Assembly: GCA_021325515.1 (NCBI GenBank)
Contig: JAJPHC010000001.1
Coordinates: forward strand, 68,248 to 132,247
From: Acidobacteriota bacterium
GTDB lineage: Bacteria > Acidobacteriota > Thermoanaerobaculia > Gp7-AA8
Direction of reading: 5' to 3'
Length of the DNA: 64,000 bases
Positions within the stretch are counted from its first letter, which is position 1; each line of letters opens with the position of its first letter. Below the pieces are notes generated by a model. That model was given only the letters and a program-made list of their open reading frames with translations. It was not told the origin of the DNA and did not search any database. The position numbers and the translations under genes are program-made. Shown in pieces: positions 11,492-41,360 of this stretch.

Positions 11492-11499
11492 TCGCTGTT

Positions 11500-11734
11500 C
11501 ACCCTGAGCGAAGTCTTTCACGCTGAGCGGAGCGAAGCGTCAACCAAGGCGCCGCCGTTTCGCGTTCTTCAGGCGCTGCGAGTGAAGTTCACATCTCGCG
11601 GCGCCTTGGTTGATCCTTCGCTTCGCTCAGGATGTTTGACCGCGCGGCGCCTTGGTTGATCCTTCGCTTCGCTCAGGATGTTTGACCGCGCGGCGCCTTG
11701 GCTGATCCTTCGCTTCGCTCAGGATGTTTGGCCG
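11500..11734. repeat. REP/MITE-like family, locus B: one full hairpin unit plus two extra tandem arm copies (46-bp period)
   Basis: Partial arm 11500-11515, full hairpin 11519-11634, then arm copies ending at 11680 and 11726 (GCGGCGCCTTGGTTGATCCTTCGCTTCGCTCAGGATGTTTGAC x3). Lies between convergent pspA and 11744..12547. Confidence 0.9.
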
Positions 11735-11743
11735 CGTGAACCC

Positions 11744-12547
11744 TCACGATGTCGTGACCATCAGCGATTCCGTGTCGATCGCGGTCTCGCGCACCGCCTC
11801 GACTCCCGTGATCAGCTCATCGAGCTGGCCTGAGAGCTCCTGCGGCGACTGCATCGTCACGATCTGATCGGCGATGAGCTGGAACGTGTTCTCGATCAGA
11901 TCGAGCTCACCGCGCGCGACGGTCACGAACTTTTTGATCTCGCGCAGTTTCTCGATCCGCTTCACGATGACGGCGAGATTCTTCTTCGCGATGTCCGTCT
12001 GCGGATCGCCGGCCGCTCCCTGCTGCGCGCGCTGCGTGTACATCTCGCGATCGTGCTCGAGCCGTTTGAGGTCGAGCTTATCGAGGTACTCCTCGTAGCG
12101 ATTGCACGTCACCGCCATGTCGATGAACGCATCGACGAGTGCATTCGTCTTCTCCAGCTCCCCGCGCAGCAGCTCGCCCGTGAAGGTCGGATTCGTTTCC
12201 GCCAGCTTCGAGATCTCGTAGTTCTTCGCGATCAGCTTCTGCACGCGGCTCGTCTCTTCACGATCGAGCGAATTGATCTTCGCGACGCGCTGGCGATAGT
12301 GCTCCGCCTGTTGCATCGATTCGAACTTCGGATCCCACACCGTCTTCCGGAGAAAACGCGAGTCCGGCGCGTGCAGCAGCCAGAGAACCTCGGCACCGAG
12401 GGCCACGGCGGCGACGATCGGATTGCTCAGCACTGCGGCTGCCGCCAGCCCGCCGCCGAGCAGCGTGAGGTTGTACGGATTCGCCAGTGCGAACCGGAAG
12501 TACGGCGGCTTTTCGGGAAGCTTGTCGGACGGTGGCGTCACCGGCAT
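11744..12547 (-). CDS. hypothetical membrane protein (two N-terminal TM segments plus long coiled coil)
   Basis: 267 aa. TM region YNLTLLGGGLAAAAVLSNPIVAAVALGAEVLWLL followed by helical heptad-rich sequence. Convergent with pspA. I recognise no family. Confidence 0.6.
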   Translation of the reverse strand: MPVTPPSDKLPEKPPYFRFALANPYNLTLLGGGLAAAAVLSNPIVAAVALGAEVLWLLHAPDSRFLRKTVWDPKFESMQQAEHYRQRVAKINSLDREETSRVQKLIAKNYEISKLAETNPTFTGELLRGELEKTNALVDAFIDMAVTCNRYEEYLDKLDLKRLEHDREMYTQRAQQGAAGDPQTDIAKKNLAVIVKRIEKLREIKKFVTVARGELDLIENTFQLIADQIVTMQSPQELSGQLDELITGVEAVRETAIDTESLMVTTS

Positions 12548-21652: not shown

Positions 21653-21908
21653 GGCCACGAAGTGATGCTCTCCGCAGATGAGGACAGGGCGGTGGAACGC
21701 GTGAGCTCAGGACGACGATGGCCATCGCCGGGCGTGGGTGGGTGGGGATCCCAGCGCCGATCGCATTAATCGCGCGGATGAATGCGATCGCGTGGCAATC
21801 ATCCGGCCACGAGCGCCCTTTGAATAAATCCGCAGCAGACGCGCATCGCCGACATCAGCGTAAGAGCACGATAGCCGTTACCGTGATCGCGACGATCGTG
21901 AGCAATAG

Positions 21909-22470
21909 CGCTCCAATCATCCGCAGCATGCCGTTGTTTTCTGCGTCGACGAGAAGACAGCCATTCAGGCCCTGGACCGACTCGATCCCGTACTGCCGTT
22001 CTCACCGGGGCGACTTGAACGCCACGGATTCGAGTACTTCCGACATGGAACACTTTCTCTCTACGCAGCGCTCAATACAAAATCGGGAGAGGTCATCGGC
22101 AAGACGGCAGCACGTCACACCAGCGAAGAGTTCGTCGCCTTTCTTTTATCCGTCGTGTCGTCGAAGCCGAAAGGTAAAGAAATCCACATCATTCTGGACA
22201 GTCTCTCGGCTCACAAAACCGACGCGTGAAGCAGTTCATGGTCGACTCCGAACGTAACTCTGCATTACACGCCCACGTACTCGTCGTGGCTTAATCAAGT
22301 GGAGATCTGGTTCAGCAAAATCGAGCGCGACGTGATCAGTCGGGGTGTCTTCACATCGATACCGGATCTACGCGGCAAACTGATGACCTACATCACCCGC
22401 TACAACGATCAACCACGGACGATTCGCTGGAGCTACGTCGACGTCTCCAAACGGATCACCGGTCCCAAAC
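21909..22470 (+). pseudogene. IS630-family transposase remnant (5'-truncated, disrupted)
   Basis: Frame-0 translation reads ..NHPQHAVVFCVDEKTAIQALDRLDPVLPFSPGRLERHGFEYFRHGTLSLYAALNTKSGEVIGKTAARHTSEEFVAFLLSVVSSKPKGKEIHIILDSLSAHKTDA*. TGA falls at 22227-22229. A locally shifted stretch (VKQFMVD in another frame) follows, then ..PNVTLHYTPTYSSWLNQVEIWFSKIERDVISRGVFTSIPDLRGKLMTYITRYNDQPRTIRWSY. There is no N-terminal HTH region. Ends are approximate. Confidence 0.8.
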
Positions 22471-22487
22471 AAATCTTTTACACGCCA

Positions 22488-23138
22488 CTAGTTCTTCGCA
22501 GCCTCACGTCTACACACGTTGACAAAATTCTTCGTCCACTTGAGCAGACTGTTATTGCGTTGATCGACACCCGAATCGTACATAGACATTGTGAAGGCGT
22601 TCATTGGTGCGACGGCGGCGATGTCATAACGCGTGATGTCAAGATACAGGCCAGGCTGCGGCGCGACTTGAACACACAGCTGCTTTAGACGGGCTAACTG
22701 CACGCGGAGCGTATGGGAGTCCGACAGGTGAATCGTTTTAGTTTTGAGGAGCTTGACCATTTCCTGTTTCGAGAGGTGCGTGTCTGTCATCGTTCGAATC
22801 TGGGCGAAAAGAGAATCGCCAACCGGCACGCTGAATTCGACTTCGACAGCGTTGGAGTCAAACTCCTTCACAACTATGTACGTCTCAAAATCGGTCGACT
22901 GTGGCGGAATCACACGGATAACAAACATGCGCCTCAGGGCTCCCCCAGAGGGAAACGCCGGCGATTCGGGCCAAAGCATATCTATGGTGCAAGACGGTAT
23001 GTCGGGACATTCCCTAGCTAGAGCTGCAGAGCACAGAAACAAGTGCGACAGCAGAAGCGCCGCAGAGATACTCCGCCTGCCTCTCGACGCAGCGCACCGA
23101 AGCCACCTTCTCAGACAACAGATCACTGACATGCGCAC
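22488..23138 (-). CDS. hypothetical exported protein; candidate immunity protein for the Rhs C-terminal toxin
   Basis: 216-aa ORF whose ATG (23138) overlaps the last 16 nt of the Rhs gene. Signal-peptide-like RRSISAALLLSHLFLCSAALA-RE. Low GC (28/60 in 22501-22560). I recognise no family, and the start codon is uncertain. Confidence 0.55.
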   Translation of the reverse strand: MRMSVICCLRRWLRCAASRGRRSISAALLLSHLFLCSAALARECPDIPSCTIDMLWPESPAFPSGGALRRMFVIRVIPPQSTDFETYIVVKEFDSNAVEVEFSVPVGDSLFAQIRTMTDTHLSKQEMVKLLKTKTIHLSDSHTLRVQLARLKQLCVQVAPQPGLYLDITRYDIAAVAPMNAFTMSMYDSGVDQRNNSLLKWTKNFVNVCRREAAKN

Positions 23139-26100
23139 TTGTCCTTCGCAGCATTTGGGAAATCTATTCTCTGCTCTTCCTTCGTGGCAGTATCCGTCTT
23201 CGGGTCATACTTACCAACGCCATTCAGCTTTGTGATCGTATAGATAGGTAAGTGAGTCGCGTGCGCCACCTTGCGGTCACCTTCATCATCTGGCAACTGC
23301 GTCCGGTCCTGGACTGGATGCGTATGAATGATTGCGACTGTGTTAGTCGGTATCGCTGAGCCTTTCTTTAGGCTTAGGCTGTTGCTCTCGTGCGTCTGTG
23401 GCCATCTAACGCAACCATACTTGCCAGTTTGCGGGTCTAATGTGATCCATGCAGCCTGTTCCTGAGGCTTCATACCCCATCCAGATTTCTCCCACAAATC
23501 CTTGATCATCTCTTGAACATGGGGGTCAGCTGTTAGCTGATCAAGCCCAGACGGGTCTATGAAGTTGATTGGGTCATTGCCAACATAGACATAAAGGTCG
23601 CCGTCATCGCCAGCAAAGCGAATCGGGTCTTTGGCCGTCCATCTCCCGACTTGCGGGTCATAGTCTCTAGCGCCAAACCGGATTAGACCTGTATCTTTGT
23701 CGCGCAGCCCTCCCGCGAATCCGAAGGGTACAAGACTAGAACCTTCCTCTGAAAGAACGTTGCCGAATTCGTCGAACGTCATCGTCGCGACGACCGTGCC
23801 CGTTCCGCTTTCGATGACGTAGCGCGGGCTCCCCAGGTGATCGGTCACGATGCGGTACGTCACACCATTCGCGATCATGTAGTCGGGAACATTCGCACGC
23901 GAGCCATACACGAACTGCTTCGTGACTGTGCCAGTTCCATCGGTCTCGGCCACGATCCGCAACTGGTCTGCATACAGCCAGCCGGTCGTCAGCACTCCGT
24001 TGACCTTCTTGCCGACTCTGCGGTTCTGCGCGTCGATCACATAGTCGATCCGTCTGCCGTCGGGCAGCACGACCGTGCGCAGATTGCCCAGCGTGTCGTA
24101 CGTGTACGTCGTCGTGCCGTTCACGTCCGTCTTCGTCGCCAGCTCGCCGTTGCTCGTATAGGTGTAGGTCACGCCATGGAGCGAGAGCAGGCGGTCCTGA
24201 TCGTCATATGTCCCACCGGCGCGGTTGCCGTTCGCGTCGTAGGTGTAGCTCGCGGTTCGCTGCCCGTCATGGCTCACCGCCGCGAGATGGCCGGCTTCGT
24301 CGTACGTGTAACCGGTCGTTGAACTGTGACCGCCGGTCGATTCGACGATCTGCGTGATCCTTCCCGCATCGTCGCGCGTGTACTCCTCGCGCAGCGCTTC
24401 CGATCCGTTCAGCGTCACGGCATACGTCATCGGCTCACCGAGTTCATTGTACGTCCAGGCGTCGCTCACGATTCCGAGCGTGGTTCCTGTGAGCATTCCG
24501 CTCTGCGCATCGCGCTTCAAGGTGAGCGCACCGGCGCCCGTCAAAAGATCGTCCGCGTCGTAGCTGAGGGTGATCCCGTTCTCGGAGGCGAGGCGCACAT
24601 CGCTGTCGTAGGTGTAGCCAACGGAGCCGCTCACCTCGCCCGTCCACGACTGCGATGTCAGCATCGATCCGTCGTAACCGTACGCCGTCGACACGCCGCT
24701 CGAGTTGCTGACCGACGACAGCCGTCCCAGCGCGTCGTAAGTATTCGTGAGCGTTGTGTCGGGCGTGGTCAGTGTGGCCAGTCGTCCCGCCGTGTCATAG
24801 GCGAAGGCGATCGTCTGTGCGTCGGGCCGGGTGATGAGGGTGAGTTGCCGGTCTTTGTTGTAGGCGTACTTCGTGATTCCGCCGTTTGGCACTGCGGGCG
24901 GCGTGTATTGATTCGTCAGACCGATTGCCGTGAATGTGAACCCATGCGACGGCCGGGAGGGAGGCGTCACCGAGGTGAGATTGTCATCCTCGTCGTAGGT
25001 GAAGCCGATCGTTCGGCCGCCCGGCAGCGTCTCGCTCGTGATCCGGTTCGCCGCGTCGTATTCGAAGATGGCCGTCCGGTGCAGCGAGTCGGTGATCGAT
25101 TGCACGCGATCGAATCCGTCGTAGGCGAAGGTCGTCGTCCTGGTTCCCTGACTCAGCGTTGCAGCGCGGCCGCGCGTGTCATACGTGACCGAGATGCCGG
25201 CAAGGGACGGGAGCTGATACAGCACCGGGCGGCCCTTCGCATCCAGCGTCGCGGACGATTGGCGGCCCAGCGGGGATCTCGCGGTCAACTGACGCGTTGC
25301 AGCGTTCCACGCACTCGTCCACGTACGGCCGTTTATTGTGAAGGATTCTGTTTGCGCCGTCATCGACAGGACATCGTTCGGGTTCGCCAGCGTAGTCGTG
25401 CGAGCCTCGCTCGTCGTCACGGTTTTCGACCCGTTCACGATGACCGATGACGCCAGCGGGGCGAGCATGCCCCAGCGAACGTCCGCAGCGTCTGTGCTCA
25501 TTGCGCTGCCCAGTGCCGACGTCACCGATGTCGTTCCTGCATAGAACCGTGTGGTAACCGGCAGCCCGTCGGACCCGGTGTGCGTGTGCTGTTCGACTCC
25601 TGCGGCATCCACCGCCGTCGCGAACGTGTCGATTCTACTTTCGGCGGTCGTTCTCTGGACGCTGAAGGTCTGCCCCGTCCCGGAGCGGGTGAGGCTGATG
25701 AAGCCTCCTAGCGGATCATTGTCCCTTTGGAGGAGGCCGTTCTCGTCGTATGTAAACGTGTGTACTCCACGGCGGCGGTCCGTCAATTGAGACAGCAGGC
25801 CGTTCGCGTCGTAACCGAAATCATAGTGCGAGCCTCCCGGCTCGGTAATCTGCGTCAGGTAGCCATTCGAGGTCGTGAGAGCGGTACGTTGGCCATTCGG
25901 AGCAACGATGCCGGTGACGTCTCCTGCGGTATTTCTTTCGATTGTCGTCACGAGACCGTCGAGGTCCGTGATGCTCGCAGGATTGCCATTGGCGTCGTAT
26001 CCGAGAGTCTCCAGCGTCACGTTCGTCAACGTGTCGACCGTGCGGGTGTGACGCCCGCCTTCGAAGACGTAGGCCACCGACCCGTCTTCCGATGGGATCA

Positions 26101-29100
26101 CCGTCGCCGACGCGCTCCTGATCGGCGGGAGCGACGAGGATGCTTTGCGGATCTGCTCGAACCACCAGTCGAGGATCACCACGCTGCCATCAGCCATGAT
26201 CTTCGCTTCCTGCGGAGAACAGAGCATATAGCCGCGTGAGACGCCGATGGCCGCAAGGCTCGCGCCCGTATCGCATTGTCCCGTGCCCGCGAACGCGACC
26301 TGCGCGCCGTCCGGCGTGATCTCCCAGACGCGTCTGCCGTTGATGTCCGTAAGGAGCACGGTTCCGTCATTCGCGACCGAGATGCCGTGTGGATCGAAGG
26401 CACCACGGCTCGCCCCCGTGGCGATGTGGAACACGCGTCCGTCCGGCGTCATTTTCCCGGCAATGGTGTCGTTCGCGAAGTACACCGTCCCATCGCTGCC
26501 GATCGCAACTCCGGAGATCGTTCCAAGCATCACCGAGCTCGCGGGAACACCGTCGTCGAAATCTGTCAGGGCTCCGCTCGCGGAATACTGTCCGGCGATC
26601 GTGTGCAGGATGCCGTCGATACCCACCTTGAAGATCCGCCCCATGCTGCCAATGTAGAGCGAACCATCGGGTCCGAGCGCCAATGAGTACGGCGTAATCG
26701 CGCGGCTCGTCGCCTGAACGCCTTCCGGCTCGCCGCCTCGCTCATACTGATCGTTACCCGCCGCCGTCACCCATTTGCCATTGACGATTGCGCGGACTCG
26801 CGAGCCCTCCACCATGTACAGCGTTCCGTCTGGACCGAGTGCGATCTGCCAGGGATCGATCGGATTGCCGAGCACATCGAAGCCATCCGCTGTGAAGCCG
26901 CGCCGTCCTGATCCGGCGATATCGACGGTCGTGCCGTCGGAGAAGCGCCGTTTGAGCTTGTACCGATCGGAGAAGTAGAGTGAGCCATCGGGAGCAGGCG
27001 CCATCGTCCAGAGATCGGCTGTGGTGCTCCCGGTGGTTAGAGTCCCGATGGCTGTTTCATGCGTCTGCAGCGGATCCGCGGCGCGCTCATGGCCATCCGG
27101 CTCATAAAGAGCGCGGCCGATGCCGTCATAGAGCCTCTGGCCGGAGAAGCTCCACCCTCCAAACCCAGCGCCCGCAGCGTCGTAGTGTCCAAGGAAGATT
27201 TGTTCCTCATCCGTCAGCTTGAAGTCGCCCGCGCGCTGAATCGCTGCGGCGATCCAGTCGCTCGGCACATCCCAGCCGGGCACGGCCGTCGTCGGGGTGT
27301 AGAGCATCGGGTAGACATACGTCACCGTGATGTCCGCGACCCGCGCGCCCTGAACGGCGCGGCCGAAACCATCGCGTCCATCCCAGGTGAAGGTGTACGT
27401 CTGATTCGGTTGAGGAGGGAACGAGAGACGGTGATCTTCTCCAGCAATCACGATCTCGAGATCGATGCGCTTCAGAGAAGCCGGCACAGTCGCACCTGAG
27501 AGTTCGATGTCCGTCGTGTATCGGACCTGTCCTGCGCGTGAGCTGTCGTATTCGAGCGAGTAAGGGGTTCCCTGGATCGATATCGATTCACCAAGGGTCT
27601 GATTGGCGCAATCAATTACGGACCAGCCACGGAGTCGGCAAGTGGCCCGCGTCTTACCGGCGCGCAAGCCCTTCCCTTTCGCTCGTTTCGGAGCTCTCGC
27701 ATCTGCAGGCGCGTGTAAGGCGAGATTCACGTCCCACGGCGTGAAGTGATCGATCGAGCTTCGCCAGAGCGACTTTCCGGGCGCGTAGAGCGAGCCGAGA
27801 GTCCGCAACTCGGCGTCGTCGATCCCGAGTTGAAGGAGCGAGACCGCACTGTCAACTGCTCCGTCGCCATCTGCATCGATGGCAGCGACGCCATTGTTGA
27901 TACTGATGATTCTGATAACGCGCGCGTTGTTGGCCGACATCCATGTGCTCTTCGCGCGGTCGTAGTATCCGACCGGAATCTGTGCGCCGCCGGGGATTCC
28001 GAGGAAGTTGTCCGTGTACATGGCGAGCGGTTTCGCAAACTTCACGTTCCCCGCCGGCACTTCGTCCGCGCCCAGCTCGACGCAGTACGTGTATCCGGAA
28101 TACGGCGGCAATGCTGCAGGCATTGCGCTCGGACCATTCGCGCCGACCGTGTACTCTGTCGCGCGGATGTGGAGCACTGAGGCAGTGGCCGTACCGCTCG
28201 TGGTCGTCACCGTTGCGGCTTCGTTTGCCGGAATGATCAGTGTCGCGGTTCGTATGCCGTCAGCGTCGTTGGTCTGGGAACCACGTGCGACTTGTACCGA
28301 GGGATTGCCCATCGACACGAGAGTCACGTTGGCGTCGTAGGACACCAGGACGACGTCATCGACGATCTTCTGTTCGTTCCAGAGCGAGCTAACCATCCGC
28401 TGCGCTTCGATCCAGCCGCTCTTGCGGTAGACGAGCGTGACGGTGCCGCCACCGTTGATCACGAGATCGAACACTCCATCCGCGCGCGTGAACGTGTGGC
28501 CGAGCTCAGGATGATTCGCAATCGTAATCTCGACGCCCGAAAGCGGTGCGCCGTCGCGCCCGTGGACGCTGCCTCGAACCGTCGTCAAGCGATCGTCGAC
28601 GATCGCGTTCGCGGCTACATTCGTCTGCACGGCATTCGAGCCGCTGTAGAGGAATCGAAATTGATCGGCGAACGGCTGCACGATCGTCCGATCGATCGTC
28701 GTTGGGATCAGGACGGGAATCGTCGCAGGCTGAATCGCGATCGTCTTCGAGGCCGTGAATCCGTTGAAGGTCGCTGTGATCGTCGCACTGCCGGCGGCAC
28801 GTCCCGTGACGAGACCCCTCACGACGGTCGCGACGCCGGCGTCCGAGGTGGTCCAGGTCGCTTGTGCGGAGACGTCCGTCCCGGAACCGTCGCTCATCCG
28901 CGCGATCGCGTTCATCGGAATCGCGGCATCCTGATCGAACGAGACAACGGGCGAAGTGAGCTCGAGCGCGTTGTACGCCGCGACCGTGAAATCCGTCGCG
29001 CTCGTTGCCGTGCCTCCCGCCGTTGTCACACTGATCCGGCCTGTCATCGTGCCGCTGGGTGCCGTCACGACGAGCTGTGTGTTCGTTACGGTTGTCACCA

Positions 29101-30754
29101 CCGCAACGCGTCCGCCGAAGGAGACGACGTCACCCGAGGGGTCGGTATCGAAGTTCGCGCCACCGATTGTGACGACGGTCCCGGACGCGCCTTGCATTGG
29201 AGAGAAGGTCGCAATGATGGGCGCCGCGAAATCGGTGAACGCGGACGGCTTCGTCGCCGTGCCTGCGTTCGTCGTCACTGTAAGGTCCACCGTACCGGCT
29301 GGGAGAGGGGGAACGACGGCGGTGATGGTGTTGCTGGTGACGGTCGTCGCACTCGTCGCCATCGCGCTGCCGAATTTCACGGTGGCGCCCGCGATGAAGT
29401 TCGTACCGGTGATCGTCACGACGTCACCGGCTTTCCCCTTACGCGGCGACACGGTTGCGATGGTTGGCGGCGGTGCGGTCGAATAGGCGCCCGTCAAAGT
29501 TGCGCTGCCGCCGGGCGTCGTCGCGACGACATCGAACACACCGGCGTTCAGTGCGGGGGTCGTTGCGACAATCTCCGCCGAGGTCAGGTAGAAGACGCCG
29601 ATCGCGTTCGTGCCGCCAAAGGTGACCTGCGTCATACCCGGGACGAACCCGCTGCCCAGGAGATGTACCTCGGTGCCGCCGGTGGTTAGACCGGAGCGAG
29701 GGTTGATCTTTGACAGAGAAACCGTCGAATCGATCCGGCGCAGTGCGTCGTTTCCCGTGTCGGCGACATAAATCGCACCCGCGAATGCGACTCCGCCAGG
29801 CTCGCGAAACTGCGCAACAGACGTTTGACCGTCGCTATAGCCGGGCTTCGCGAGACCGGTGACCGTGGATACAGTCACCGAAGTGCCGTTCAGCGTGATT
29901 CGGCGAATCGCGTGATTCTTCGAATCAGCCACGAGGACGTTGCCTGAGTCGTCGCAGGCAATCCCCGAGGGCTCCTTGAGCTCCGCCAGATTGCCGGCAC
30001 CATCGGCGTAGCCGCCGTGGCCCGTTCCTGCGAGCGTGCTGACGACGCCGGCCCGAAGGACGCGGATCATGTTGTTCTTCGTATCGGAGATCAGGAGCGA
30101 TCCGTCGGGTGCGATCGCCACTCCTTCAGGTTGTTTGAATTGAGCCTTGCCAGCTGGTCCGTCCGCCAGCCCTTCGTGAACGTCTCCGGCGAGCGTCGTG
30201 ACTGCACCAGCGGGTGTGATCTGCTTGATTCGACTATTTCCGGTATCAGCGACATAGATCACGCCAGTTGCATCAACGGCGATGCCGGATGGCTGCTTGA
30301 ATGCTGCCTGCACACCCGTTCCATCGCGATCCTCGGGCTTGCCTGAGCCGGCGAGAGTGGTCGTCACGCCATCGAAGGTCACGGCGCGGATGAGATGATT
30401 TCCGCTGTCCGCAACATAGATGATGCGGCGGACCTCATCGATCGCCACTCCGGCTGGTTCTTTGAGCTCAGCCTGTGTGCCGCTGCCGTTTGCATTGCCC
30501 GGTTTTCCGCTTCCCGCGAGGATAGTGACCGCGCCCGCCACCGAAATTCGAAGCAGGCGGTGGTGTGCTCGATCAGCGACGATGATGTCGCCAGTCTTGT
30601 GAACAACCGCCAGCGCTGCGGGAGATTTCAGGATGTCGTCACCCTTTTTTGAAGCGACGACAGTCGTCACGGATGTGAACGAGGTCTGAGCCGCGGCAGC
30701 GGCCGCGAAGAGTGATCCGGCGATTACTGCCAGAAGAGCGGAACCACGAACCAT
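23123..30754 (-). CDS. secreted Rhs/YD-repeat polymorphic toxin with teneurin-like architecture (2543 aa)
   Basis: Sec signal MVRGSALLAVIAGSLFAAAAAAQ. Six NHL blades (~30640-29720). Three IPT/TIG domains (~29715-28985; INPRSGLTTGGTEVHLLGSGF, VSPRKGKAGDVVTITGTNF, FSPMQGASGTVVTIGGANF). Big_2-like domain (ATWTTSDAGVATV). Carboxypeptidase-regulatory/TTR-like domain (GSVHGRDGAPLSGVEITI, ~28620-28350). A ~450-aa unassigned region. A second six-bladed NHL-like propeller (~27000-26170). YD repeats (GYDANGNPASITD onward, ~26050-23550). Rhs core end PINFIDPSGL. A 140-aa C-terminal domain (23126-23545). Confidence 0.92.
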   Translation of the reverse strand: MVRGSALLAVIAGSLFAAAAAAQTSFTSVTTVVASKKGDDILKSPAALAVVHKTGDIIVADRAHHRLLRISVAGAVTILAGSGKPGNANGSGTQAELKEPAGVAIDEVRRIIYVADSGNHLIRAVTFDGVTTTLAGSGKPEDRDGTGVQAAFKQPSGIAVDATGVIYVADTGNSRIKQITPAGAVTTLAGDVHEGLADGPAGKAQFKQPEGVAIAPDGSLLISDTKNNMIRVLRAGVVSTLAGTGHGGYADGAGNLAELKEPSGIACDDSGNVLVADSKNHAIRRITLNGTSVTVSTVTGLAKPGYSDGQTSVAQFREPGGVAFAGAIYVADTGNDALRRIDSTVSLSKINPRSGLTTGGTEVHLLGSGFVPGMTQVTFGGTNAIGVFYLTSAEIVATTPALNAGVFDVVATTPGGSATLTGAYSTAPPPTIATVSPRKGKAGDVVTITGTNFIAGATVKFGSAMATSATTVTSNTITAVVPPLPAGTVDLTVTTNAGTATKPSAFTDFAAPIIATFSPMQGASGTVVTIGGANFDTDPSGDVVSFGGRVAVVTTVTNTQLVVTAPSGTMTGRISVTTAGGTATSATDFTVAAYNALELTSPVVSFDQDAAIPMNAIARMSDGSGTDVSAQATWTTSDAGVATVVRGLVTGRAAGSATITATFNGFTASKTIAIQPATIPVLIPTTIDRTIVQPFADQFRFLYSGSNAVQTNVAANAIVDDRLTTVRGSVHGRDGAPLSGVEITIANHPELGHTFTRADGVFDLVINGGGTVTLVYRKSGWIEAQRMVSSLWNEQKIVDDVVLVSYDANVTLVSMGNPSVQVARGSQTNDADGIRTATLIIPANEAATVTTTSGTATASVLHIRATEYTVGANGPSAMPAALPPYSGYTYCVELGADEVPAGNVKFAKPLAMYTDNFLGIPGGAQIPVGYYDRAKSTWMSANNARVIRIISINNGVAAIDADGDGAVDSAVSLLQLGIDDAELRTLGSLYAPGKSLWRSSIDHFTPWDVNLALHAPADARAPKRAKGKGLRAGKTRATCRLRGWSVIDCANQTLGESISIQGTPYSLEYDSSRAGQVRYTTDIELSGATVPASLKRIDLEIVIAGEDHRLSFPPQPNQTYTFTWDGRDGFGRAVQGARVADITVTYVYPMLYTPTTAVPGWDVPSDWIAAAIQRAGDFKLTDEEQIFLGHYDAAGAGFGGWSFSGQRLYDGIGRALYEPDGHERAADPLQTHETAIGTLTTGSTTADLWTMAPAPDGSLYFSDRYKLKRRFSDGTTVDIAGSGRRGFTADGFDVLGNPIDPWQIALGPDGTLYMVEGSRVRAIVNGKWVTAAGNDQYERGGEPEGVQATSRAITPYSLALGPDGSLYIGSMGRIFKVGIDGILHTIAGQYSASGALTDFDDGVPASSVMLGTISGVAIGSDGTVYFANDTIAGKMTPDGRVFHIATGASRGAFDPHGISVANDGTVLLTDINGRRVWEITPDGAQVAFAGTGQCDTGASLAAIGVSRGYMLCSPQEAKIMADGSVVILDWWFEQIRKASSSLPPIRSASATVIPSEDGSVAYVFEGGRHTRTVDTLTNVTLETLGYDANGNPASITDLDGLVTTIERNTAGDVTGIVAPNGQRTALTTSNGYLTQITEPGGSHYDFGYDANGLLSQLTDRRRGVHTFTYDENGLLQRDNDPLGGFISLTRSGTGQTFSVQRTTAESRIDTFATAVDAAGVEQHTHTGSDGLPVTTRFYAGTTSVTSALGSAMSTDAADVRWGMLAPLASSVIVNGSKTVTTSEARTTTLANPNDVLSMTAQTESFTINGRTWTSAWNAATRQLTARSPLGRQSSATLDAKGRPVLYQLPSLAGISVTYDTRGRAATLSQGTRTTTFAYDGFDRVQSITDSLHRTAIFEYDAANRITSETLPGGRTIGFTYDEDDNLTSVTPPSRPSHGFTFTAIGLTNQYTPPAVPNGGITKYAYNKDRQLTLITRPDAQTIAFAYDTAGRLATLTTPDTTLTNTYDALGRLSSVSNSSGVSTAYGYDGSMLTSQSWTGEVSGSVGYTYDSDVRLASENGITLSYDADDLLTGAGALTLKRDAQSGMLTGTTLGIVSDAWTYNELGEPMTYAVTLNGSEALREEYTRDDAGRITQIVESTGGHSSTTGYTYDEAGHLAAVSHDGQRTASYTYDANGNRAGGTYDDQDRLLSLHGVTYTYTSNGELATKTDVNGTTTYTYDTLGNLRTVVLPDGRRIDYVIDAQNRRVGKKVNGVLTTGWLYADQLRIVAETDGTGTVTKQFVYGSRANVPDYMIANGVTYRIVTDHLGSPRYVIESGTGTVVATMTFDEFGNVLSEEGSSLVPFGFAGGLRDKDTGLIRFGARDYDPQVGRWTAKDPIRFAGDDGDLYVYVGNDPINFIDPSGLDQLTADPHVQEMIKDLWEKSGWGMKPQEQAAWITLDPQTGKYGCVRWPQTHESNSLSLKKGSAIPTNTVAIIHTHPVQDRTQLPDDEGDRKVAHATHLPIYTITKLNGVGKYDPKTDTATKEEQRIDFPNAAKDKCACQ

Positions 30755-30936: not shown

Positions 30937-30958
30937 CTACGCCGCGCGGTAATCGCTC
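30937..30958 (+). repeat. right copy of the 22-nt direct repeat CTAYGCCGCGCGGTAATCGCTC
   Basis: See 21631-21652. This copy spans the stop codon (minus strand) of the anti-sigma gene. Confidence 0.6.
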
Positions 30959-31389
30959 TCGTCGACGACTAACAGAAGGATGCACCCTTCCTTGCTGACG
31001 ACGTTGCCGTGCGTCTCGCCGGCGTCGACCATGTGGAAGTCGCCCTTGCTGATGCAGACCGAGCCGATGCAGCAGCTTCCCTCGAGCACGAACGTCTGCT
31101 CGTTGCCCTGATGGTGATGCTCGGGCAGTTCCGCGCCGGGCTGGAAGCGCATCAGCAGCGTGACGGTGCGGCGCTCCGGATCGCGCGACAGCCGCTTGAT
31201 CTCGACGCCCGCAACCACCGGCTTCCAGCGCCCTTCCGCCGAGCGGATCGTGACGCTGTTCTGCGGCGTGTGGCGGATCGCTTCGAGGATGCTGGCGCGA
31301 ACGCTCGCAGGAGGAGCGACCGGCTCGATCGATTGCGCGATCAGCTCGTCGATTGCAGCGATTTCTTCGAGTGCCACAGGGTCGTTCAT
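30937..31389 (-). CDS. ChrR-like cupin-domain protein, putative anti-sigma factor
   Basis: 150 aa. C-terminal cupin (LLMRFQPGAELPEHHHQGNEQTFVLEGS..GDFHMVDAGETH). Lies 9 nt downstream of an ECF sigma gene. I see no HxxxCxxC zinc motif in the N-terminus. Confidence 0.6.
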   Translation of the reverse strand: MNDPVALEEIAAIDELIAQSIEPVAPPASVRASILEAIRHTPQNSVTIRSAEGRWKPVVAGVEIKRLSRDPERRTVTLLMRFQPGAELPEHHHQGNEQTFVLEGSCCIGSVCISKGDFHMVDAGETHGNVVSKEGCILLLVVDESDYRAA

Positions 31390-31398
31390 GAGTAACCT

Positions 31399-31782
31399 TT
31401 ATCGCAACTGCTGGCGGAGCTCGGTGATTCCGTCCCGAAGCATCCGCCTCACCTCGCGCTCTTCAAGCCCGTGCGTCCGGGCAAGATCAGAGGCCGTTCG
31501 TCCCCGGAAAAAGGCCTCTTCCACCAGTTGTCGAGCGGTTGGTGGACCTCCAACCATTGGATCTACGGACGCCGCGCGCGTTTGGTCTTGTCCCGCCAGG
31601 GCCTGGTTCCGGACGGTGCGGAGGAGCCAGGCTTCCGGCGATCCGAACCGCGCGTCATAGCCGCGAAGCATGGCGAACGTCTCTTCCAAAGCGCGTGCCG
31701 CCGCGTCGCGATTGCCGGCAATTCGCAATGCGACCGCGAACAACTGCGCCGCGTGGCGATCGTAAAGGGCGGTCAGATCCAT
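31399..31782 (-). CDS. short ECF-type sigma-70 family factor (127 aa)
   Basis: Region-2-like LYDRHAAQLFAVALRIAGNRDAAARALEETF..PEAWLLRTVRNQAL and region-4 HTH-like RTASDLARTHGLEEREVRRMLRDGITELRQQL. Confidence 0.55.
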   Translation of the reverse strand: MDLTALYDRHAAQLFAVALRIAGNRDAAARALEETFAMLRGYDARFGSPEAWLLRTVRNQALAGQDQTRAASVDPMVGGPPTARQLVEEAFFRGRTASDLARTHGLEEREVRRMLRDGITELRQQLR

Positions 31783-32546: not shown

Positions 32547-33197
32547 ATGGCGCAGATTTTCCACCGAAGCACAAACACCCTCTCACGCGTCACGATATTC
32601 GGCGCGGTCTTCGTCATTGGTTTCGTGCTCTGGCTCGTCGGTGAGATCGTTCGCTCGCCGTACGTGACGAACCAGGGACTCGAGCGCGAGCAGCCCGTTC
32701 CGTTTTCGCATCAGCACCACGTTGCGGGCCTCGGCATCGACTGCCGTTACTGTCATACGTCGGTCGAGACCTCGAGTTTCGCCGGAATTCCGCCGACGCA
32801 GACGTGCATGAACTGCCACGCGCAGATCTGGACGAATGCCGACATGCTGGCGCCGGTCCGCGCGAGCTACGCGACGAACAAGCCGATCGTCTGGAGCCGC
32901 GTGCACCGCCTTCCGGACTTCGTCCACTTCAACCACAGCATTCACATCAACAAGGGCATCGGCTGCGCTTCGTGCCACGGACGCATCGACAAGATGGCGC
33001 TGACCTATCAGGCGTCGCCGCTGACGATGGCCTGGTGCCTGAGCTGCCATCGCGCGCCGCAGAAGTTCGTCCGCCCGCGTGACCAGGTCTTCAACATGGA
33101 CTACGTGCCGGCCGAGGATCAGAACGTGCTCGGCCCGCGCCTGGTGAAGGAATACAACATCAAGTCGATGACGGCTTGTTCAACGTGTCATTACTAG
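32547..33197 (+). CDS. actA: alternative complex III pentaheme cytochrome c subunit ActA
   Basis: N-terminal TM and five CxxCH motifs (CRYCH, CMNCH, CASCH, CLSCH, CSTCH). First gene of an actABCDEF run. Confidence 0.88.
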   Translation: MAQIFHRSTNTLSRVTIFGAVFVIGFVLWLVGEIVRSPYVTNQGLEREQPVPFSHQHHVAGLGIDCRYCHTSVETSSFAGIPPTQTCMNCHAQIWTNADMLAPVRASYATNKPIVWSRVHRLPDFVHFNHSIHINKGIGCASCHGRIDKMALTYQASPLTMAWCLSCHRAPQKFVRPRDQVFNMDYVPAEDQNVLGPRLVKEYNIKSMTACSTCHY

Positions 33198-33264
33198 GCG
33201 GCAGGCGCGAGGCGCTAGGCGCGGGTACTTCCACTCGCGCCCCGCGCCCCACGCCCTGCGCCCT
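33196..33264. repeat. GC-rich hairpin whose arms are four tandem heptamers each
   Basis: Left arm: aggcggc aggcgcg aggcgct aggcgcg (33196-33223, the first overlapping the actA TAG). Right arm: gcgcccc gcgcccc acgccct gcgccct (33237-33264). The arms are ~6/7 complementary per heptamer. Lies in the actA-actB intergenic region. Confidence 0.7.
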
Positions 33265-33273
33265 GAAACAACC

Positions 33274-36267
<2,994 letters not shown>

Positions 36268-36269
36268 CG

Positions 36270-37691
<1,422 letters not shown>

Positions 37692-38240
37692 ATGCCTATC
37701 GGTAAACCACTCGAAGGAACGTACGGCGTCATCGCCGAGTTCGCCGATCCGCAGGAGCTGCTCAACGCGGCGAACGCTGCGCGCGAGGCGGGCTACAAAG
37801 AGCTCGATGCCTATTCGCCATTTCCGATTCACGGACTGGCGGAAGCGATTGGCTTCCATCGCTCGCGGCTGTCGGCCGTCGTGCTCGGCGGCGGCATCAT
37901 CGGCGGCTTCTCCGGCTTCTTCATGTGCTGGTACGCCAACGTGATCTGGTATCCGCTGAACATCGGCGGCAAGCCTTTCAACTCATGGCCGGCGTGGATC
38001 CCGATCACGTTCGAATGCACGATCCTCTTCGCTGCCTTCGCAGCGGTCTTCGGCATGCTCGCGCTCAACGGACTGCCGATGCCGTATCACCCCGTCTTCA
38101 ACGTGCCGCGCTTCGATCAGGCGTCGCGCGACAAATTCTTCCTCGTGATCCAGGCCCGCGACCCGAAGTTCGACATCGACGACGTCTGGAAATTTCTCGA
38201 GAGTCTCGGACCGCGAGAGGTGAATGATGTTCCCTGGTGA
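37692..38240 (+). CDS. actD: alternative complex III subunit ActD
   Basis: 182 aa. N-terminus GVIAEFADPQELLNAANAAREAGYKELDAYSPFPIHGL, then two TM segments. Position is as in the operon. Confidence 0.85.
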   Translation: MPIGKPLEGTYGVIAEFADPQELLNAANAAREAGYKELDAYSPFPIHGLAEAIGFHRSRLSAVVLGGGIIGGFSGFFMCWYANVIWYPLNIGGKPFNSWPAWIPITFECTILFAAFAAVFGMLALNGLPMPYHPVFNVPRFDQASRDKFFLVIQARDPKFDIDDVWKFLESLGPREVNDVPW

Positions 38241-38853
38241 CGACAGCCGACAGCCGACAGCCGACCGCCGGTCTCTGTCGCTGCGTGCCGTGCTCCTGCT
38301 GTCTGCTGTCTGCGGCCTGCTCGCTTTGAGCGGCTGCCGTCAGAAGATGGCGAACCAGCCTCGCTACGATCCGCTGGAGCCGAGCGATTTCTTCGCGGAT
38401 GGGATGTCGGCGCGCCCGCGCATTCCGGGGACCGTCGCCCGCGGTGAGCTCGCCATGGATCCCGTCATGGCCACGGGCAAGATGAATGGTCAGGATGTTG
38501 ACGGGTTTCCGTTCGCCATCGATGCTGCCGCGCTCAATCGCGGGCAGGAGCGCTACACGATTTACTGCACTCCCTGCCACGGCCGCACCGGCGACGGCAA
38601 CGGCATGATCCCCTCGCGCGGCTATCGCCATCCGCCGTCGTTCCACACCGACACGCTCCGCAACGCAAAGACAGGACATTTCTTCGACGTGATGACCAAC
38701 GGATTCGGCTCCATGCCGTCGTACGCGCATCAGATCCCGGTGGAAGACCGCTGGAAGATCGTCGCGTACATTCGCGCGCTGCAGCTCAGCCAGAACGCGA
38801 CCATCAATGAAGTGCCCGCCGATCAGCGTGCAACGCTCGGGGGTGGCAAGTGA
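38224..38853 (+). CDS. actE: alternative complex III monoheme cytochrome c lipoprotein ActE
   Basis: Lipoprotein signal LLLSAVCGLLALSGC and a single CTPCH heme motif. Confidence 0.85.
   Translation: MMFPGDDSRQPTADRRSLSLRAVLLLSAVCGLLALSGCRQKMANQPRYDPLEPSDFFADGMSARPRIPGTVARGELAMDPVMATGKMNGQDVDGFPFAIDAAALNRGQERYTIYCTPCHGRTGDGNGMIPSRGYRHPPSFHTDTLRNAKTGHFFDVMTNGFGSMPSYAHQIPVEDRWKIVAYIRALQLSQNATINEVPADQRATLGGGK
38241..38325. repeat. heptamer-arm inverted repeat inside the 5' end of actE
   Basis: Left arm: cgacagc x3 + cgaccgc (38241-38268). Right arm: gctgtct gctgtct gcggcct gctcgct (38298-38325). RC of cgacagc is gctgtcg (6/7 match). Encodes the n- and h-regions of the ActE signal peptide (DSRQPTADRR ... 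LLLSAVCGLLA). Confidence 0.65.
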
Positions 38854-40040
38854 GCAGCGTGCAATCGACACAGGAATCGACCGGCATCGCGCGCTTCCAG
38901 GTTCCGGCGCTCATCATCGGCGTCATCGGATTCGCGGTCACGATCTTCGGCTTCGTCTCGAGCATCGACGCCGCGATGCACGCCTATCTCACGAGCTACC
39001 TCTTCTGGTTGCAGATCGTCGCCGGATCCCTCGGCGTTCTCTGCCTGCAGTACGTGACCGGCGGTGAGTGGGGCATCCTGCTTCGCCGCCCGCTCGGTGC
39101 CGCGGCGCGCACGATGATCATCATGGCGATCCTCGCCATTCCGGTGGTGATCGGCGCGAAGCACATCTATCCCTGGACGAATCTCGAGTTCATGCGGGAG
39201 GACGCCTCGCTGCGGCTCAAGCAGGGCTACCTCAACACGAACTTCTGGATGATTCGCACCGCTGCCTACTTCGTGATCTGGATTCTCTGGGCGTGGCGGA
39301 TCCGCATCCTCTCGCTCAAGTTCTACGAAGACCGCTCGCCGTACATCGATCTGCGCCGCCGCGGCTGGGCCGCTGCGGGACTGCCGATGATCGTTCTCAC
39401 GCTGACGTTCTTCTCGATCGACTGGATGATGTCGCTCGAGCCGAAGTGGTACTCGACGATGTACGGGATCAACTTCCTGATCTCGGCGGGACTCGCGGCG
39501 TTCGCGTTCTGCACGTTCTTCCTCTCGCGCCTGGCGAACGTTCCCGCGATGTCGAACATCCTGAAGCCGCTTCATTTCCGTGACATGGGCAACCTGATGC
39601 TCGCCTTCGTCATGCTGTGGGCCTACACGGCGTTCTCCGAGTTCCTCCTGACGTGGTACGGCAACATCAAGGAAGAGATTCCGCACTACATGGCGCGGCA
39701 GGAAGGCGCCTGGGGTGCCGTGTCGCTCGCGCTCATCGTGCTGCACTTCTTCCTGCCGTTCTTCCTGCTGCTGATCCGCGACATCAAGGACCGGCCGGCG
39801 ACGATCGGTGCCGTGGCGATCGTGGTGCTGGTGATGCGTTACGTCGGTACGCTCTGGAGCGTCGCCCCGGCATGGGGCCACTTCCACTACTCGCTGTGGG
39901 ATGCCGCCTCGCTGCTCGGAGTTGGCGGCATCTGGCTGTTCTTCTTCATCCAGCAGTTGAAGGGACAGACGATCATCCCGATTCACGAGACGTGGGTCGA
40001 AGAAGCGATTCGAGAGGGGGCCGTGAAGATCAATGGCTGA
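38850..40040 (+). CDS. actF: alternative complex III membrane subunit ActF (NrfD-like paralogue)
   Basis: 396-aa polytopic protein immediately after actE. Confidence 0.85.
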   Translation: MSSVQSTQESTGIARFQVPALIIGVIGFAVTIFGFVSSIDAAMHAYLTSYLFWLQIVAGSLGVLCLQYVTGGEWGILLRRPLGAAARTMIIMAILAIPVVIGAKHIYPWTNLEFMREDASLRLKQGYLNTNFWMIRTAAYFVIWILWAWRIRILSLKFYEDRSPYIDLRRRGWAAAGLPMIVLTLTFFSIDWMMSLEPKWYSTMYGINFLISAGLAAFAFCTFFLSRLANVPAMSNILKPLHFRDMGNLMLAFVMLWAYTAFSEFLLTWYGNIKEEIPHYMARQEGAWGAVSLALIVLHFFLPFFLLLIRDIKDRPATIGAVAIVVLVMRYVGTLWSVAPAWGHFHYSLWDAASLLGVGGIWLFFFIQQLKGQTIIPIHETWVEEAIREGAVKING

Positions 40041-40563
40041 TCTCAATCTGCACGACTATCACGAGGAAGACATCGTCAATGCGGAGACGCATCACGAGAA
40101 AAGCGATGTCAACGTCCGCGCGCTGTTCATCTTCGGCATCGTCTTCGTCATCTTCGCGGCCGTATCGCACGGCGCGCTGTACATCATGTACAGGCAGTTC
40201 ATCCGCTACGCGAACGACCATCAGAACAAGCCGCTGACGATGATGGAGCGGCCGGAGAGCATGACCGTCCCGGCGGCGCCGCGCCTGCAGCCGTTCCCGT
40301 CGAAGACGCCGTCAGGAGTCATCGCGCCGAATGCCAATACGCCGGTCACCGACATGGCCGACATGCGGCGCGAGCAGGAGAACGTGCTCAACTCGTACGG
40401 CTACGCCGATCGCCAGAAAGGCGTTGTCCACATTCCGATCGAGGATGCGAAAAAGCTGGCCCTGCAGAAAGGCTTCGCCAGTGTAGGACAGGCGCCCCCG
40501 CCTGTCCCTGCGGTGCCTTCGTCTTCCCCAGCCCCCGTCCCGGCCGAATCGAAAAAGCCATGA
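40033..40563 (+). CDS. ACIII/oxidase-associated single-pass membrane protein (possibly ActG-like)
   Basis: 176 aa with one TM (ALFIFGIVFVIFAAVSHGALYIMY). Overlaps the actF stop and the sco start. Function unknown. Confidence 0.55.
   Translation: MADLNLHDYHEEDIVNAETHHEKSDVNVRALFIFGIVFVIFAAVSHGALYIMYRQFIRYANDHQNKPLTMMERPESMTVPAAPRLQPFPSKTPSGVIAPNANTPVTDMADMRREQENVLNSYGYADRQKGVVHIPIEDAKKLALQKGFASVGQAPPPVPAVPSSSPAPVPAESKKP
40481..40508. repeat. second copy of the mini-hairpin GTGTAGGACAGGCGCCCCCGCCTGTCCC, inside coding sequence
   Basis: Same 9-bp stem as at 34256-34283. Encodes ..SVGQAPPPVP.. in the C-terminal tail of the 40033..40563 protein. Confidence 0.75.
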
Positions 40564-41360
40564 AACGCACCCTGATCCTCGCGGCTTCTCTGCTGGCGCT
40601 CCCCGCGATCGCACAGCAGAACTCCGCCGATCCGCCGAAGCTCCCGGGCCGTGTCGCGATTCAGCAGAAGCTCGACACGCAGATCCCCCTCGACACGATG
40701 TTCCGCGATGAGACCGGGCGCGTCGTCCGTCTCAGCGAGTACTTCAGGAGTGGCAGACCCGTGCTGCTCAACTTCATGTACTACCGCTGCCCGATGCTCT
40801 GCCCTACGGTGCTGGAAGGGACGACGAACACGCTGACCGAGTTGAAGTTCGACATCGGCAGGGAATTCGACGTGATCACGGTGAGCATCGATCCTCGCGA
40901 CACGCCGGAGATGGCCGCCCAGAAGAAGGATCACTATCTGAAGCGCTACGGCCGGCTGAATTCGGCGGCGGGATGGCATTTCCTCACCGGCAACGAGAGC
41001 TCGATCAAACGGCTCGCGAATGCGGTCGGGTTCGAGTATGCATATGACCTCCAGAGCGATCAGTTCGCGCACGGCGCCGCACTGCTCGTGCTGACGCCGC
41101 AGGGCAAGGTCTCGCGCTACTTCTACGGCTTCGAGTACAGCCCGCGCGATCTGCGCCTCGGCCTGGTCGAAGCTGCGGCGAACAAGATCGGCACCGCCAC
41201 CGACCAGTTCATGCTCCTCTGCTTTCACTACGATCCGGCGACGGGCAAGTACGCCAAGACTGCGATGAACATCGTTCGCGCCGGAGGCGTGGCGACGATC
41301 ATCAGCCTCGCCAGCTTCATCTTCATCATGCTGCGCAATGAACGGAAATCGAATCAATGA
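40560..41360 (+). CDS. SCO1/SenC family copper chaperone
   Basis: Signal/anchor, thioredoxin-like fold with CPMLCP (CxxxC), and a C-terminal TM. Precedes the oxidase genes. Confidence 0.8.
   Translation: MKRTLILAASLLALPAIAQQNSADPPKLPGRVAIQQKLDTQIPLDTMFRDETGRVVRLSEYFRSGRPVLLNFMYYRCPMLCPTVLEGTTNTLTELKFDIGREFDVITVSIDPRDTPEMAAQKKDHYLKRYGRLNSAAGWHFLTGNESSIKRLANAVGFEYAYDLQSDQFAHGAALLVLTPQGKVSRYFYGFEYSPRDLRLGLVEAAANKIGTATDQFMLLCFHYDPATGKYAKTAMNIVRAGGVATIISLASFIFIMLRNERKSNQ

Follow-up and report, generated by a model that had tools for sequence, protein, structure and literature searches.

The stretch of DNA analysed here, hereafter the window, comprises 64,000 nucleotides of an Acidobacteriota bacterium of the class Thermoanaerobaculia (assembly GCA_021325515.1, contig JAJPHC010000001.1, forward-strand positions 68,248 to 132,247). 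Its reverse strand carries at 23123-30754 one uninterrupted open reading frame (ORF) of 2543 codons, whose product, of predicted mass ~270 kDa, is supported by sequence comparison and structural modelling as a bacterial teneurin-like protein (TLP), i.e. a polymorphic toxin of the Rhs/YD type that is exported by Sec. Profile matches and alignment to the TLP of Bacillus inaquosorum (BiTLP) give the domain order signal peptide, NHL propeller, three IPT/TIG domains, Big_2, TTR, teneurin insertion protein (TIP) domain, FN-plug, six-bladed NHL propeller, YD shell, Rhs core and a C-terminal domain (CTD) of 139 residues. Directly downstream on the same strand lies a candidate immunity gene of 214 codons (22488-23132), and beyond it, on the forward strand, an IS630-like DDE transposase pseudogene (21880-22470) that is recognizable in its frame-3 translation.

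Bacterial TLPs were defined by Raoelijaona et al. (Nat Commun 2026; PMC13018210) together with a 2.1 Å cryo-electron microscopy structure of BiTLP (PDB 9pt5, 9ifo). As described there, TLPs share an invariant superfold of FN-plug, NHL propeller and YD shell that follows a TTR domain and a bacterial TIP insert, the latter present in 96% of TLPs; they carry variable N-terminal adhesion modules, a hypervariable ~15 kDa CTD hidden in the shell, two autoproteolytic sites and an immunity gene directly downstream (PMC13018210). The architecture of the class is already published and structurally solved, and the protein described here is a further TLP, from an acidobacterial class not sampled before. 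The FN-plug, the NHL and the YD-shell domains by which a TLP is defined (PMC13018210) are found in one ORF; the class was assigned with the Pfam teneurin models and the BiTLP alignment in place of the published TLP hidden Markov models.

The N-terminal part begins with a Sec-type signal peptide at residues 1-22 (30689-30754), read from the translation as MVRGSALLAVIAGSLFAAAAAA with cleavage predicted before the following Q. The first cysteine of the whole protein is residue 267 and a lipobox cysteine is absent from the signal peptide, which is therefore not of the lipoprotein type. An NHL beta-propeller follows at residues ~40-340 (29735-30637; Pfam NHL, 134 bits in 5 repeats), then the three IPT/TIG domains at residues ~345-596 (28967-29722; Pfam TIG, 109 bits in 3 stretches) and a Big_2 domain at residues 598-665 (28760-28963; 27 bits against a cut-off of 22.8) that aligns to the BIG repeats of BiTLP.

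The teneurin-like core starts with a teneurin-type TTR domain at residues 722-803 (28346-28591; Pfam TTR_TEN1-4, 83.1 bits, cut-off 27). Residues ~804-1040 (27635-28345), which are matched by no Pfam model, align to BiTLP ~400-715 and take their name and position as the TIP domain from PMC13018210. The FN-plug, also placed by the BiTLP alignment, occupies residues ~1041-1234 (27053-27634) and includes a predicted self-cleavage site, G1043-W1044/S1045, close to C1039. The central propeller at residues ~1235-1544 (26123-27052) matches TEN_NHL when scanned alone (41.7 bits, cut-off 27.1). The YD/Rhs shell spans residues ~1545-2404 (23543-26122) by profiles, BiTLP alignment and model, and ends in the Rhs core aspartyl protease; within it TEN_YD-shell matches residues 1561-2377 (82.3 bits, cut-off 50), RHS_repeat gives 124 bits in 10 stretches and Rhs_assc_core (TIGR03696) covers 2328-2404 (73.5 bits, cut-off 32.5). 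The CTD, residues 2405-2543, is encoded at 23126-23542.

A preliminary description of the window, made from the letters and translations, had proposed the domain order of the animal teneurin superfold. The Pfam and NCBIfam profiles reproduce that order nearly to the base, and the teneurin-specific Pfam models for TTR, NHL and YD shell all score above their cut-offs. Its N-terminal additions were likewise borne out, the Sec signal by the translation and the further NHL propeller, three IPT/TIG domains and single Big_2 by Pfam. Some statements require amendment. A ~450-residue plug region had been called unassigned and said to contain a DADGDGAVDS loop; the loop is there at residues 960-969, inside TIP, but the region, of which residues 804-1234 lack a full Pfam assignment, is accounted for as TIP plus FN-plug by the BiTLP alignment. 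Similarly, the Rhs core motif PINFIDPSGL is present, but the core ends with residue 2404 at window position 23543 and not at 23546 as written.

Fold, self-cleavage sites and N-terminal module

The class assignment is carried by the following comparisons. In a PDB sequence search the "Teneurin-like protein" entries 9pt5/9ifo are far ahead at 1049 bits, followed by animal teneurins 2, 3 and 4 at ~220 bits and by Rhs proteins of type VI secretion systems (T6SS) at ~95-127 bits. Residues 600-1234 align continuously to BiTLP 283-928 (464 bits), i.e. through BIG, TTR, TIP and FN-plug. The FN-plug itself matches BiTLP 676-923 with 124 bits (E 4e-35) and the FN-plugs of teneurin-2, -3 and -4 with E values of 1e-8 to 1e-12.

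An AlphaFold model of residues 1205-2404, i.e. the central propeller and the whole shell, was built from a 50-sequence alignment and has a mean pLDDT of 87.5 and a pTM of 0.71. Its propeller contains 24 strands, or six blades of four, in agreement with the six blades counted in the preliminary description. In a Foldseek search of the PDB the model matches the bacterial TLP 9ifo best (E 4.8e-98; TM-score over the query, TMq, 0.76; 1273 columns), followed by animal teneurins (E 1e-67 to 1e-74; TMq 0.67-0.70; ~1300 columns), whereas T6SS Rhs cages, which lack the propeller, reach a TMq of 0.33-0.58 and TcB-TcC (TcdB2-TccC3) 0.33-0.43. Since the shell makes up ~830 of the 1200 modelled residues (~0.69 of the query), a TMq of 0.76 exceeds what the shell alone can give, and the propeller is thus placed relative to the shell as in 9ifo. 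The NHL and YD parts superpose on 9ifo as one body, so that the second propeller appears packed against the YD shell, an arrangement on which the preliminary description had staked its teneurin comparison.

Both autoproteolytic sites of BiTLP have predicted counterparts. R2363, D2376 (in DPIR) and D2400 (in DPSGL) align to BiTLP R2103, D2116 and D2140, the 24-residue spacing being preserved, and L2404 corresponds to the last residue of the solved chain 9ifo; we infer a cut after L2404 that would leave residues 2405-2543 as the 139-residue CTD. At the FN-plug, BiTLP C719...G723/S724 aligns to C1039...G1043-W1044-S1045, with C1039 equivalent to C719 and S1045 to S724. This serine is invariant in 10 relatives, in which the residue preceding it varies (G, W, Y, N or A); GWS occurs in the closest relative as well. 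A second cut is therefore predicted, by homology, before S1045. Nine cysteines are present in the whole protein: 1039 and 1049 flank the FN-plug site, and 2448, 2540 and 2542 lie in the CTD. Their positions would allow, but do not show, a disulfide between plug and CTD such as that seen in BiTLP (PMC13018210).

The N-terminal propeller has PDB sequence matches to the NHL domains of SOQ1, NHLRC2 and TRIM71. Its presence ahead of the TLP core had been taken as an extra, and is indeed confirmed, yet it is no peculiarity of this protein. The series signal peptide, NHL, three TIG, Big_2 and TTR is colinear in a Thermoanaerobaculia protein (P0109) from a metagenome-assembled genome (MAG), with 47% identity over 724 residues, and the same module heads a 2733-residue TLP at another Thermoanaerobaculia locus (L004; 53% identity over 689 residues). 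It is colinear also in L071, a locus of the Thermoanaerobaculia chromosome OY970284.1, in L052 and in the 2532-residue P0127, with a shorter version in P0101. The NHL/TIG head is thus, in these sequence comparisons, a clade feature of Thermoanaerobaculia TLPs rather than a one-off. The N-terminal modules published for TLPs are BIG, SLH, FN3, CARDB, CW-binding, CarboxypepD, PKD, Ig-like, WD40, CADG and Dicty_CTDC (PMC13018210); neither an NHL propeller nor the triple TIG is among them.

The C-terminal domain and the gene downstream

Alone, the CTD matches no family in Pfam or NCBIfam, and a PDB sequence search with it gives only designed repeat proteins, matched by chance over 16 residues. A word-indexed protein search found only two relatives (130 residues), but an exhaustive HMMER profile search with a limit of E<=1e-3 extended the family to 332 or more cluster representatives. 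Members are carried by TLPs (P0123, P0127 and L004), by an Rhs protein with PKD and LamG domains (P0133) and by a classical Rhs protein (P0144). In an alignment of 27 diverse members invariance is confined to E2432, H2477, H2479, P2480 and D2493, i.e. an E/HxHP/D pattern. Among these 27 relatives 14 match Pfam Prok-JAB, seven match DUF4329 (best E 0.0033) and three RadC. The CTD of the window does not match DUF4329, and its close homologues reach 13.5-13.7 bits against a cut-off of 28.6. On these profile scores the domain is a JAB toxin clade related to, and separate from, the Tox-JAB-2/DUF4329 clade; the latter equation and the motif E, H[ST]H, S, D are due to Zhang et al. 2012 (PMC3482391).

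The structural model of the CTD agrees with this assignment. The AlphaFold prediction has a pLDDT of 90.8 and a pTM of 0.87, and the 35 best Foldseek matches in the PDB are all JAMM/MPN proteins (BRCC36, Rpn11, CSN5, AMSH/Sst2 and Pyrococcus JAMM1); its viral fold matches are JAB/MPN/RadC proteins. Together the family alignment and the model establish the CTD as a predicted, divergent JAB/JAMM fold with a putative metal site formed by E2432, H2477-x-H2479 and D2493.

The best 151 representatives of the CTD family (P0121-P0271), classed with a domain-only profile, are divided in their setting. At least 36 are linked to Rhs proteins or TLPs, and 72 are small stand-alone proteins that have a signal-like N-terminus of their own and no Rhs part.

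The candidate immunity gene starts with an ATG at 23132 that overlaps the stop codon of the TLP gene (ATGTCAGTGA). Its 214-residue product matches no Pfam family at E values up to 1, and hence neither Imm65 nor Imm-NTF2; it has a signal-like N-terminus and cysteines at positions 42 and 48. In two related loci (L002 and L003) a CTD of the same family is followed by homologues with 37-38% identity, and this similarity reaches upstream of the later start that was called in the Logan contig; the shared region comprises the basic-then-hydrophobic N-terminus and a conserved C..I..C.ID..WP motif. In L004 a same-family CTD is followed by a distant homologue (hhalign 94.8%, E 4.8e-8) with a signal-like start and without the cysteine motif. 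Thus in four of four loci the protein begins with a basic-then-hydrophobic, signal-like segment, which in the three close ones only is followed directly by the cysteine pair. From its position and recurrence the 214-residue protein is probably the immunity protein of the CTD.

Locus L004 has in addition, downstream of its TLP and immunity gene, an orphan Rhs tip with a second JAB-family CTD, which is frameshifted, followed by another immunity-like ORF (10796-11987); this is a classic orphan toxin/immunity array. In L002 the end of a YD shell and a JAB CTD lie at 63-1318 in different frames ~140 bp apart, as expected either of a frameshift in the assembly or of a decayed toxin copy.

The site of action may be approached from these observations. 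The CTD of BiTLP is toxic to E. coli only when it is sent to the periplasm (PMC13018210). This, the signal-like N-termini of the immunity homologues and those of the 72 small relatives of the CTD all point to a JAB domain that works outside the cytoplasm, and suggest that the CTD acts in the periplasm. Extracytoplasmic action would in turn favour a peptidase or an amidase over a nuclease.

Base composition sets the toxin and immunity genes apart from the rest of the TLP gene. The G+C fraction is 0.62 for the gene up to the Rhs core, 0.51 for the CTD, 0.53 for the immunity gene and 0.54 for the next ~600 bp; the drop begins at the DPxGL boundary, and the low-G+C block extends over 21850-23542. 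A step at this boundary fits the exchange of a toxin/immunity module. The insertion sequence remnant found directly after the immunity gene lacks its N-terminus, contains an interrupting stop or frameshift and gives in Pfam a weak hint of rve_3 only; we take it to belong to the IS630 family, as its C-terminal region looks typical. Composition and gene order mark the CTD, the immunity gene and the IS630 remnant as an apparently swapped low-G+C cassette.

Genomic surroundings and distribution

A Pfam scan of about 45 ORFs of the window showed housekeeping genes throughout. They include genes for Ccm cytochrome c maturation, PspA, an OmpA-family protein, ABC and AAA proteins, a TonB-dependent receptor, PnuC, a NadR-like protein, an ECF (extracytoplasmic function) sigma/ChrR-like pair, alternative complex III, cytochrome oxidase, citrate synthase, peptidases and an SNF2 helicase. 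The respiratory genes (32547-44671, forward strand) form a block that looks complete, with a multihaem cytochrome c, subunits of alternative complex III, among them ActD, as well as SCO1 and subunits I-III of cytochrome oxidase, and the Ccm operon lies at 119-7743 on the same strand; by their gene content, they confirm an aerobic diderm as the probable host. That the host is a diderm had been stated before and agrees also with the OmpA and TonB-dependent receptor genes. COX1 and PnuC each share a >=90% cluster with proteins from Thermoanaerobaculia MAGs. None of these ~45 ORFs is a PAAR, VgrG, T6SS, type VII secretion or Tc gene by Pfam, and the earlier remark that such genes, including TcA/TcB-like ones, are missing from the window holds. 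Neither a TcB-type N-terminal propeller nor an SpvB domain, as expected of a Tc BC component, was found in the protein itself with Pfam and NCBIfam, nor a TcA-like gene in the window.

Conservation of the neighbourhood was tested with tblastn searches of eight flanking proteins (cupin, sigma, ORF156, DUF502, cytochrome c, NadR-like, PnuC and TonB receptor) against 80 related loci. No homologue was found near the TLPs, and a conserved secretion partner is consequently not indicated there; the published survey also found no delivery machinery for the class (PMC13018210). Directly upstream of the TLP gene, on the same strand (30937-31782), are a short ECF-type sigma factor of 127 residues with regions 2 and 4 only, whose ORF is missing from the gene calls of the Logan contig, and the gene of a ChrR-like cupin anti-sigma factor. 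This pair was considered as a dedicated regulator of the TLP and rejected, as it is not found next to TLPs in the 80 other loci. Farther away (57045-61790, reverse strand) lies the gene of a 1581-residue protein that combines six InlB B-repeats (Flg_new_2) with NHL repeats and with a galactose-binding domain such as is associated with type IX secretion cargo, which is odd for an acidobacterial contig. Export of the TLP by type IX secretion, an idea raised by this neighbouring domain, was discarded because the TLP has a toxin and not a sorting domain at its C-terminus and the host is acidobacterial.

TLPs had been reported from 139 genomes in six phyla (PMC13018210). A profile of TTR, TIP and FN-plug, made from an 11-sequence alignment, was used to scan one genome per GTDB species, and the TTR-TIP-FN-plug core was detected in at least 586 species-representative genomes. 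Among the matches listed are members of phyla beyond the six of the paper, i.e. Verrucomicrobiota, Gemmatimonadota, Nitrospirota, Planctomycetota, Chloroflexota and Methylomirabilis. In ~75 of the best 80 loci (L004-L083) NHL and YD parts are present as well. These numbers suggest that the 139 genomes reported understate how common TLPs are.

Two kinds of unusual protein were also noted. A partial protein of 775 residues with TTR and FN-plug (P0060) comes from a MAG labelled "Candidatus Nitrosotalea sp.", an archaeon, and could be either binning contamination or a real archaeal TLP. Many proteins of 600-950 residues on long contigs (P0054, P0086, P0107 and others) have TTR and FN-plug as their only Pfam domains and lack the NHL and YD-shell parts; their genes may have been split in calling, or they may be free-standing TTR-TIP-FN-plug proteins.

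Interpretation and relation to known systems

The reading that best joins these observations, to which we give a probability of about 0.8, is that the protein is a Sec-exported TLP polymorphic toxin whose JAB CTD is a zinc hydrolase acting extracytoplasmically, paired with an exported immunity protein from the gene downstream. Judged from context, the N-terminal propeller and the Ig-like stalk would serve in display or targeting of the protein. By homology to BiTLP the CTD would lie inside the shell, self-cleavage after L2404 would free it, and a second cut would be made before S1045. The CTD would then act in the periplasm or envelope of a competitor bacterium, most likely as a peptidase or amidase, while the 214-residue immunity protein would be exported to the periplasm of the producer.

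A number of points weigh against this reading. The match to FN-plug_TEN1-4 at residues 1083-1148 scores 23.3 bits, below the cut-off of 27.8, and, as compared with the G/S of BiTLP, a tryptophan is inserted before the cleavage-site serine. The TTR, TIP and FN-plug assignments rest on sequence homology and lie outside the modelled residues 1205-2404, the packing of propeller on shell was judged by global TM-scores, and signal peptides were recognised visually and with a hydrophobicity rule. For the CTD, the window sequence itself matches no Pfam model, the Foldseek scores against JAMM structures are modest (E 5.7e-3 and TM ~0.5 at a probability of up to 0.99), and the loop from HxH to D reads PDDEGD, in which the canonical JAMM serine (PSxxD) is replaced. 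Literature searches turned up no experimental work on this protein or on any CTD-family member.

The rival to which most weight is given, though still an unlikely one, accepts the TLP but makes the CTD a RadC-like nuclease that needs the cytoplasm of its target, with the exported immunity protein protecting the producer only during export. Zhang et al. 2012 noted that Tox-JAB-1 and -2 lack the tunnel for the ubiquitin tail, and that toxin JAB domains may be RadC-like nucleases rather than peptidases (PMC3482391). In the present data RadC is weakly matched by three of the 27 relatives and occurs among the viral fold matches, and the DUF4329 tips of Salmonella Rhs proteins have been labelled RNases and have cytoplasmic, CdiI-like immunity proteins. 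The Salmonella labels are, however, annotations and not assays, and the best fold matches of the CTD are isopeptidases. A cytoplasmic target also accords poorly with the signal-like N-termini of the immunity homologues at all four loci, with the cysteine pair in the three close ones, with the conserved cysteines at the C-terminus of the CTD and with the fact that nearly half of the best representatives of the CTD family (72/151) are small, apparently exported proteins.

Two other explanations concern the protein as a whole and are both improbable. It might function chiefly in surface adhesion or cell-cell recognition, as animal teneurins do, with a vestigial or secondary toxin tip. The long N-terminal propeller and Ig-like stalk do resemble a binding or display module, and a signalling or social role was left open for the class (PMC13018210); but the aspartyl protease motif, lost in animal teneurins, is intact here, the CTD keeps its full catalytic motif, the immunity gene is translationally coupled, the low-G+C cassette was recently exchanged, and the related locus L004 keeps orphan toxin and immunity modules, all of which are hallmarks of an active polymorphic toxin. 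Slightly less probable still is that the protein is an Rhs effector of a T6SS, Tc-like or other machine encoded elsewhere in the genome and that its Sec signal is incidental. Most characterised Rhs toxins of diderms do use T6SS or Tc (PMC13018210), and the window covers 64 kb of a contig of 196.9 kb. Set against this are a clear N-terminal signal peptide that is also found in the colinear homologues, the lack in the protein of PAAR, VgrG-binding or TcB-type domains by Pfam and NCBIfam, the lack of T6SS and Tc genes in the 64-kb window and of flanking-protein homologues near TLPs at the 80 related loci searched by tblastn, and the absence of delivery machinery for the class in the published survey (PMC13018210).

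The preferred reading, a TLP with an extracytoplasmic JAB hydrolase, can be extended more tentatively. The CTD and the gene following it may define a so far uncharacterised family of extracytoplasmic JAB/JAMM metallohydrolase toxins, each with an exported immunity protein; this is a possibility to which we give somewhat worse than even odds. If members do cleave an envelope substrate, e.g. an amide or isopeptide bond of peptidoglycan or of a lipoprotein, they would be the first JAMM toxins to act in the periplasm, and the NHL/TIG-headed, non-lipoprotein TLPs of the Thermoanaerobaculia would then be a distinct delivery variant of the class. More generally, the locus and its relatives provide independent confirmation that the teneurin superfold, including its self-cleavage sites, is widespread in uncultured diderm bacteria, and place the fold in the Thermoanaerobaculia, where it is joined to an N-terminal module and to a toxin type absent from the lists of the founding paper. 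The details that go beyond that paper (PMC13018210) are the NHL/TIG head, the lipobox-free signal peptide and the JAB CTD with exported immunity in four loci. To the main question of the class, i.e. how the toxin is delivered, the locus adds nothing. The most useful lead is the JAB toxin/immunity pair, which could decide between a peptidase and a nuclease function for toxin JAB domains, an issue open since 2012.

Among known systems BiTLP is the closest. The order BIG, TTR, TIP, FN-plug, NHL, YD shell, Rhs core and small CTD is common to both, as are the R/D/D aspartyl protease site, the FN-plug serine, a CTD of ~15 kDa, an immunity gene directly downstream and the absence of delivery genes nearby. 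The differences lie at the two ends of the protein, i.e. in the NHL propeller and triple TIG head and in a JAB/JAMM CTD that is unrelated to the membrane-active CTD of BiTLP, in the tryptophan before the cleavage-site serine, and in the host, since the Acidobacteriota TLPs of the paper are from Holophagae (PMC13018210) whereas this one is from a diderm of the Thermoanaerobaculia.

Animal teneurins, such as teneurin-2 (6FB3) and teneurin-3 (6FAY), share the superfold of TTR, FN-plug, six-bladed NHL and YD shell. Their transmembrane and intracellular part, EGF repeats, ABD and Tox-GHH were not detected here, and the N-terminus is a signal peptide in place of a membrane anchor; conversely, the protein has a TIP insert and an Rhs core with its self-cleavage site intact, neither of which animal teneurins have (PMC13018210). 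In addition, the CTD is predicted to be enclosed, whereas that of teneurins is displayed outside the shell.

The T6SS Rhs effectors (RhsA, RhsP, Tse5 and Tse15) and the Tc BC components (TcdB2-TccC3) resemble the protein in having a YD cage, C-terminal aspartyl self-cleavage, an encapsulated polymorphic toxin and, for the antibacterial ones, a cognate immunity protein. They are distinguished from it by its Sec signal peptide and teneurin-type FN-plug and NHL domains, and by its lack of PAAR, VgrG, a TcA partner and a TcB-type propeller. The CTD, finally, is most like Tox-JAB-2/DUF4329 and Tox-JAB-1 (PMC3482391), which are also small JAB-fold domains with the E, H[ST]H, D pattern at the C-terminus of Rhs proteins; the immunity protein of Tox-JAB-1, Imm65, is likewise exported, as a lipoprotein (PMC3482391). 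Besides the replaced serine, the lack of a Pfam JAB match and an immunity protein without an Imm65 match, the present domain is set apart from the Tox-JAB toxins by its carrier, a TLP in place of an Rhs protein of a T6SS or type II secretion system.

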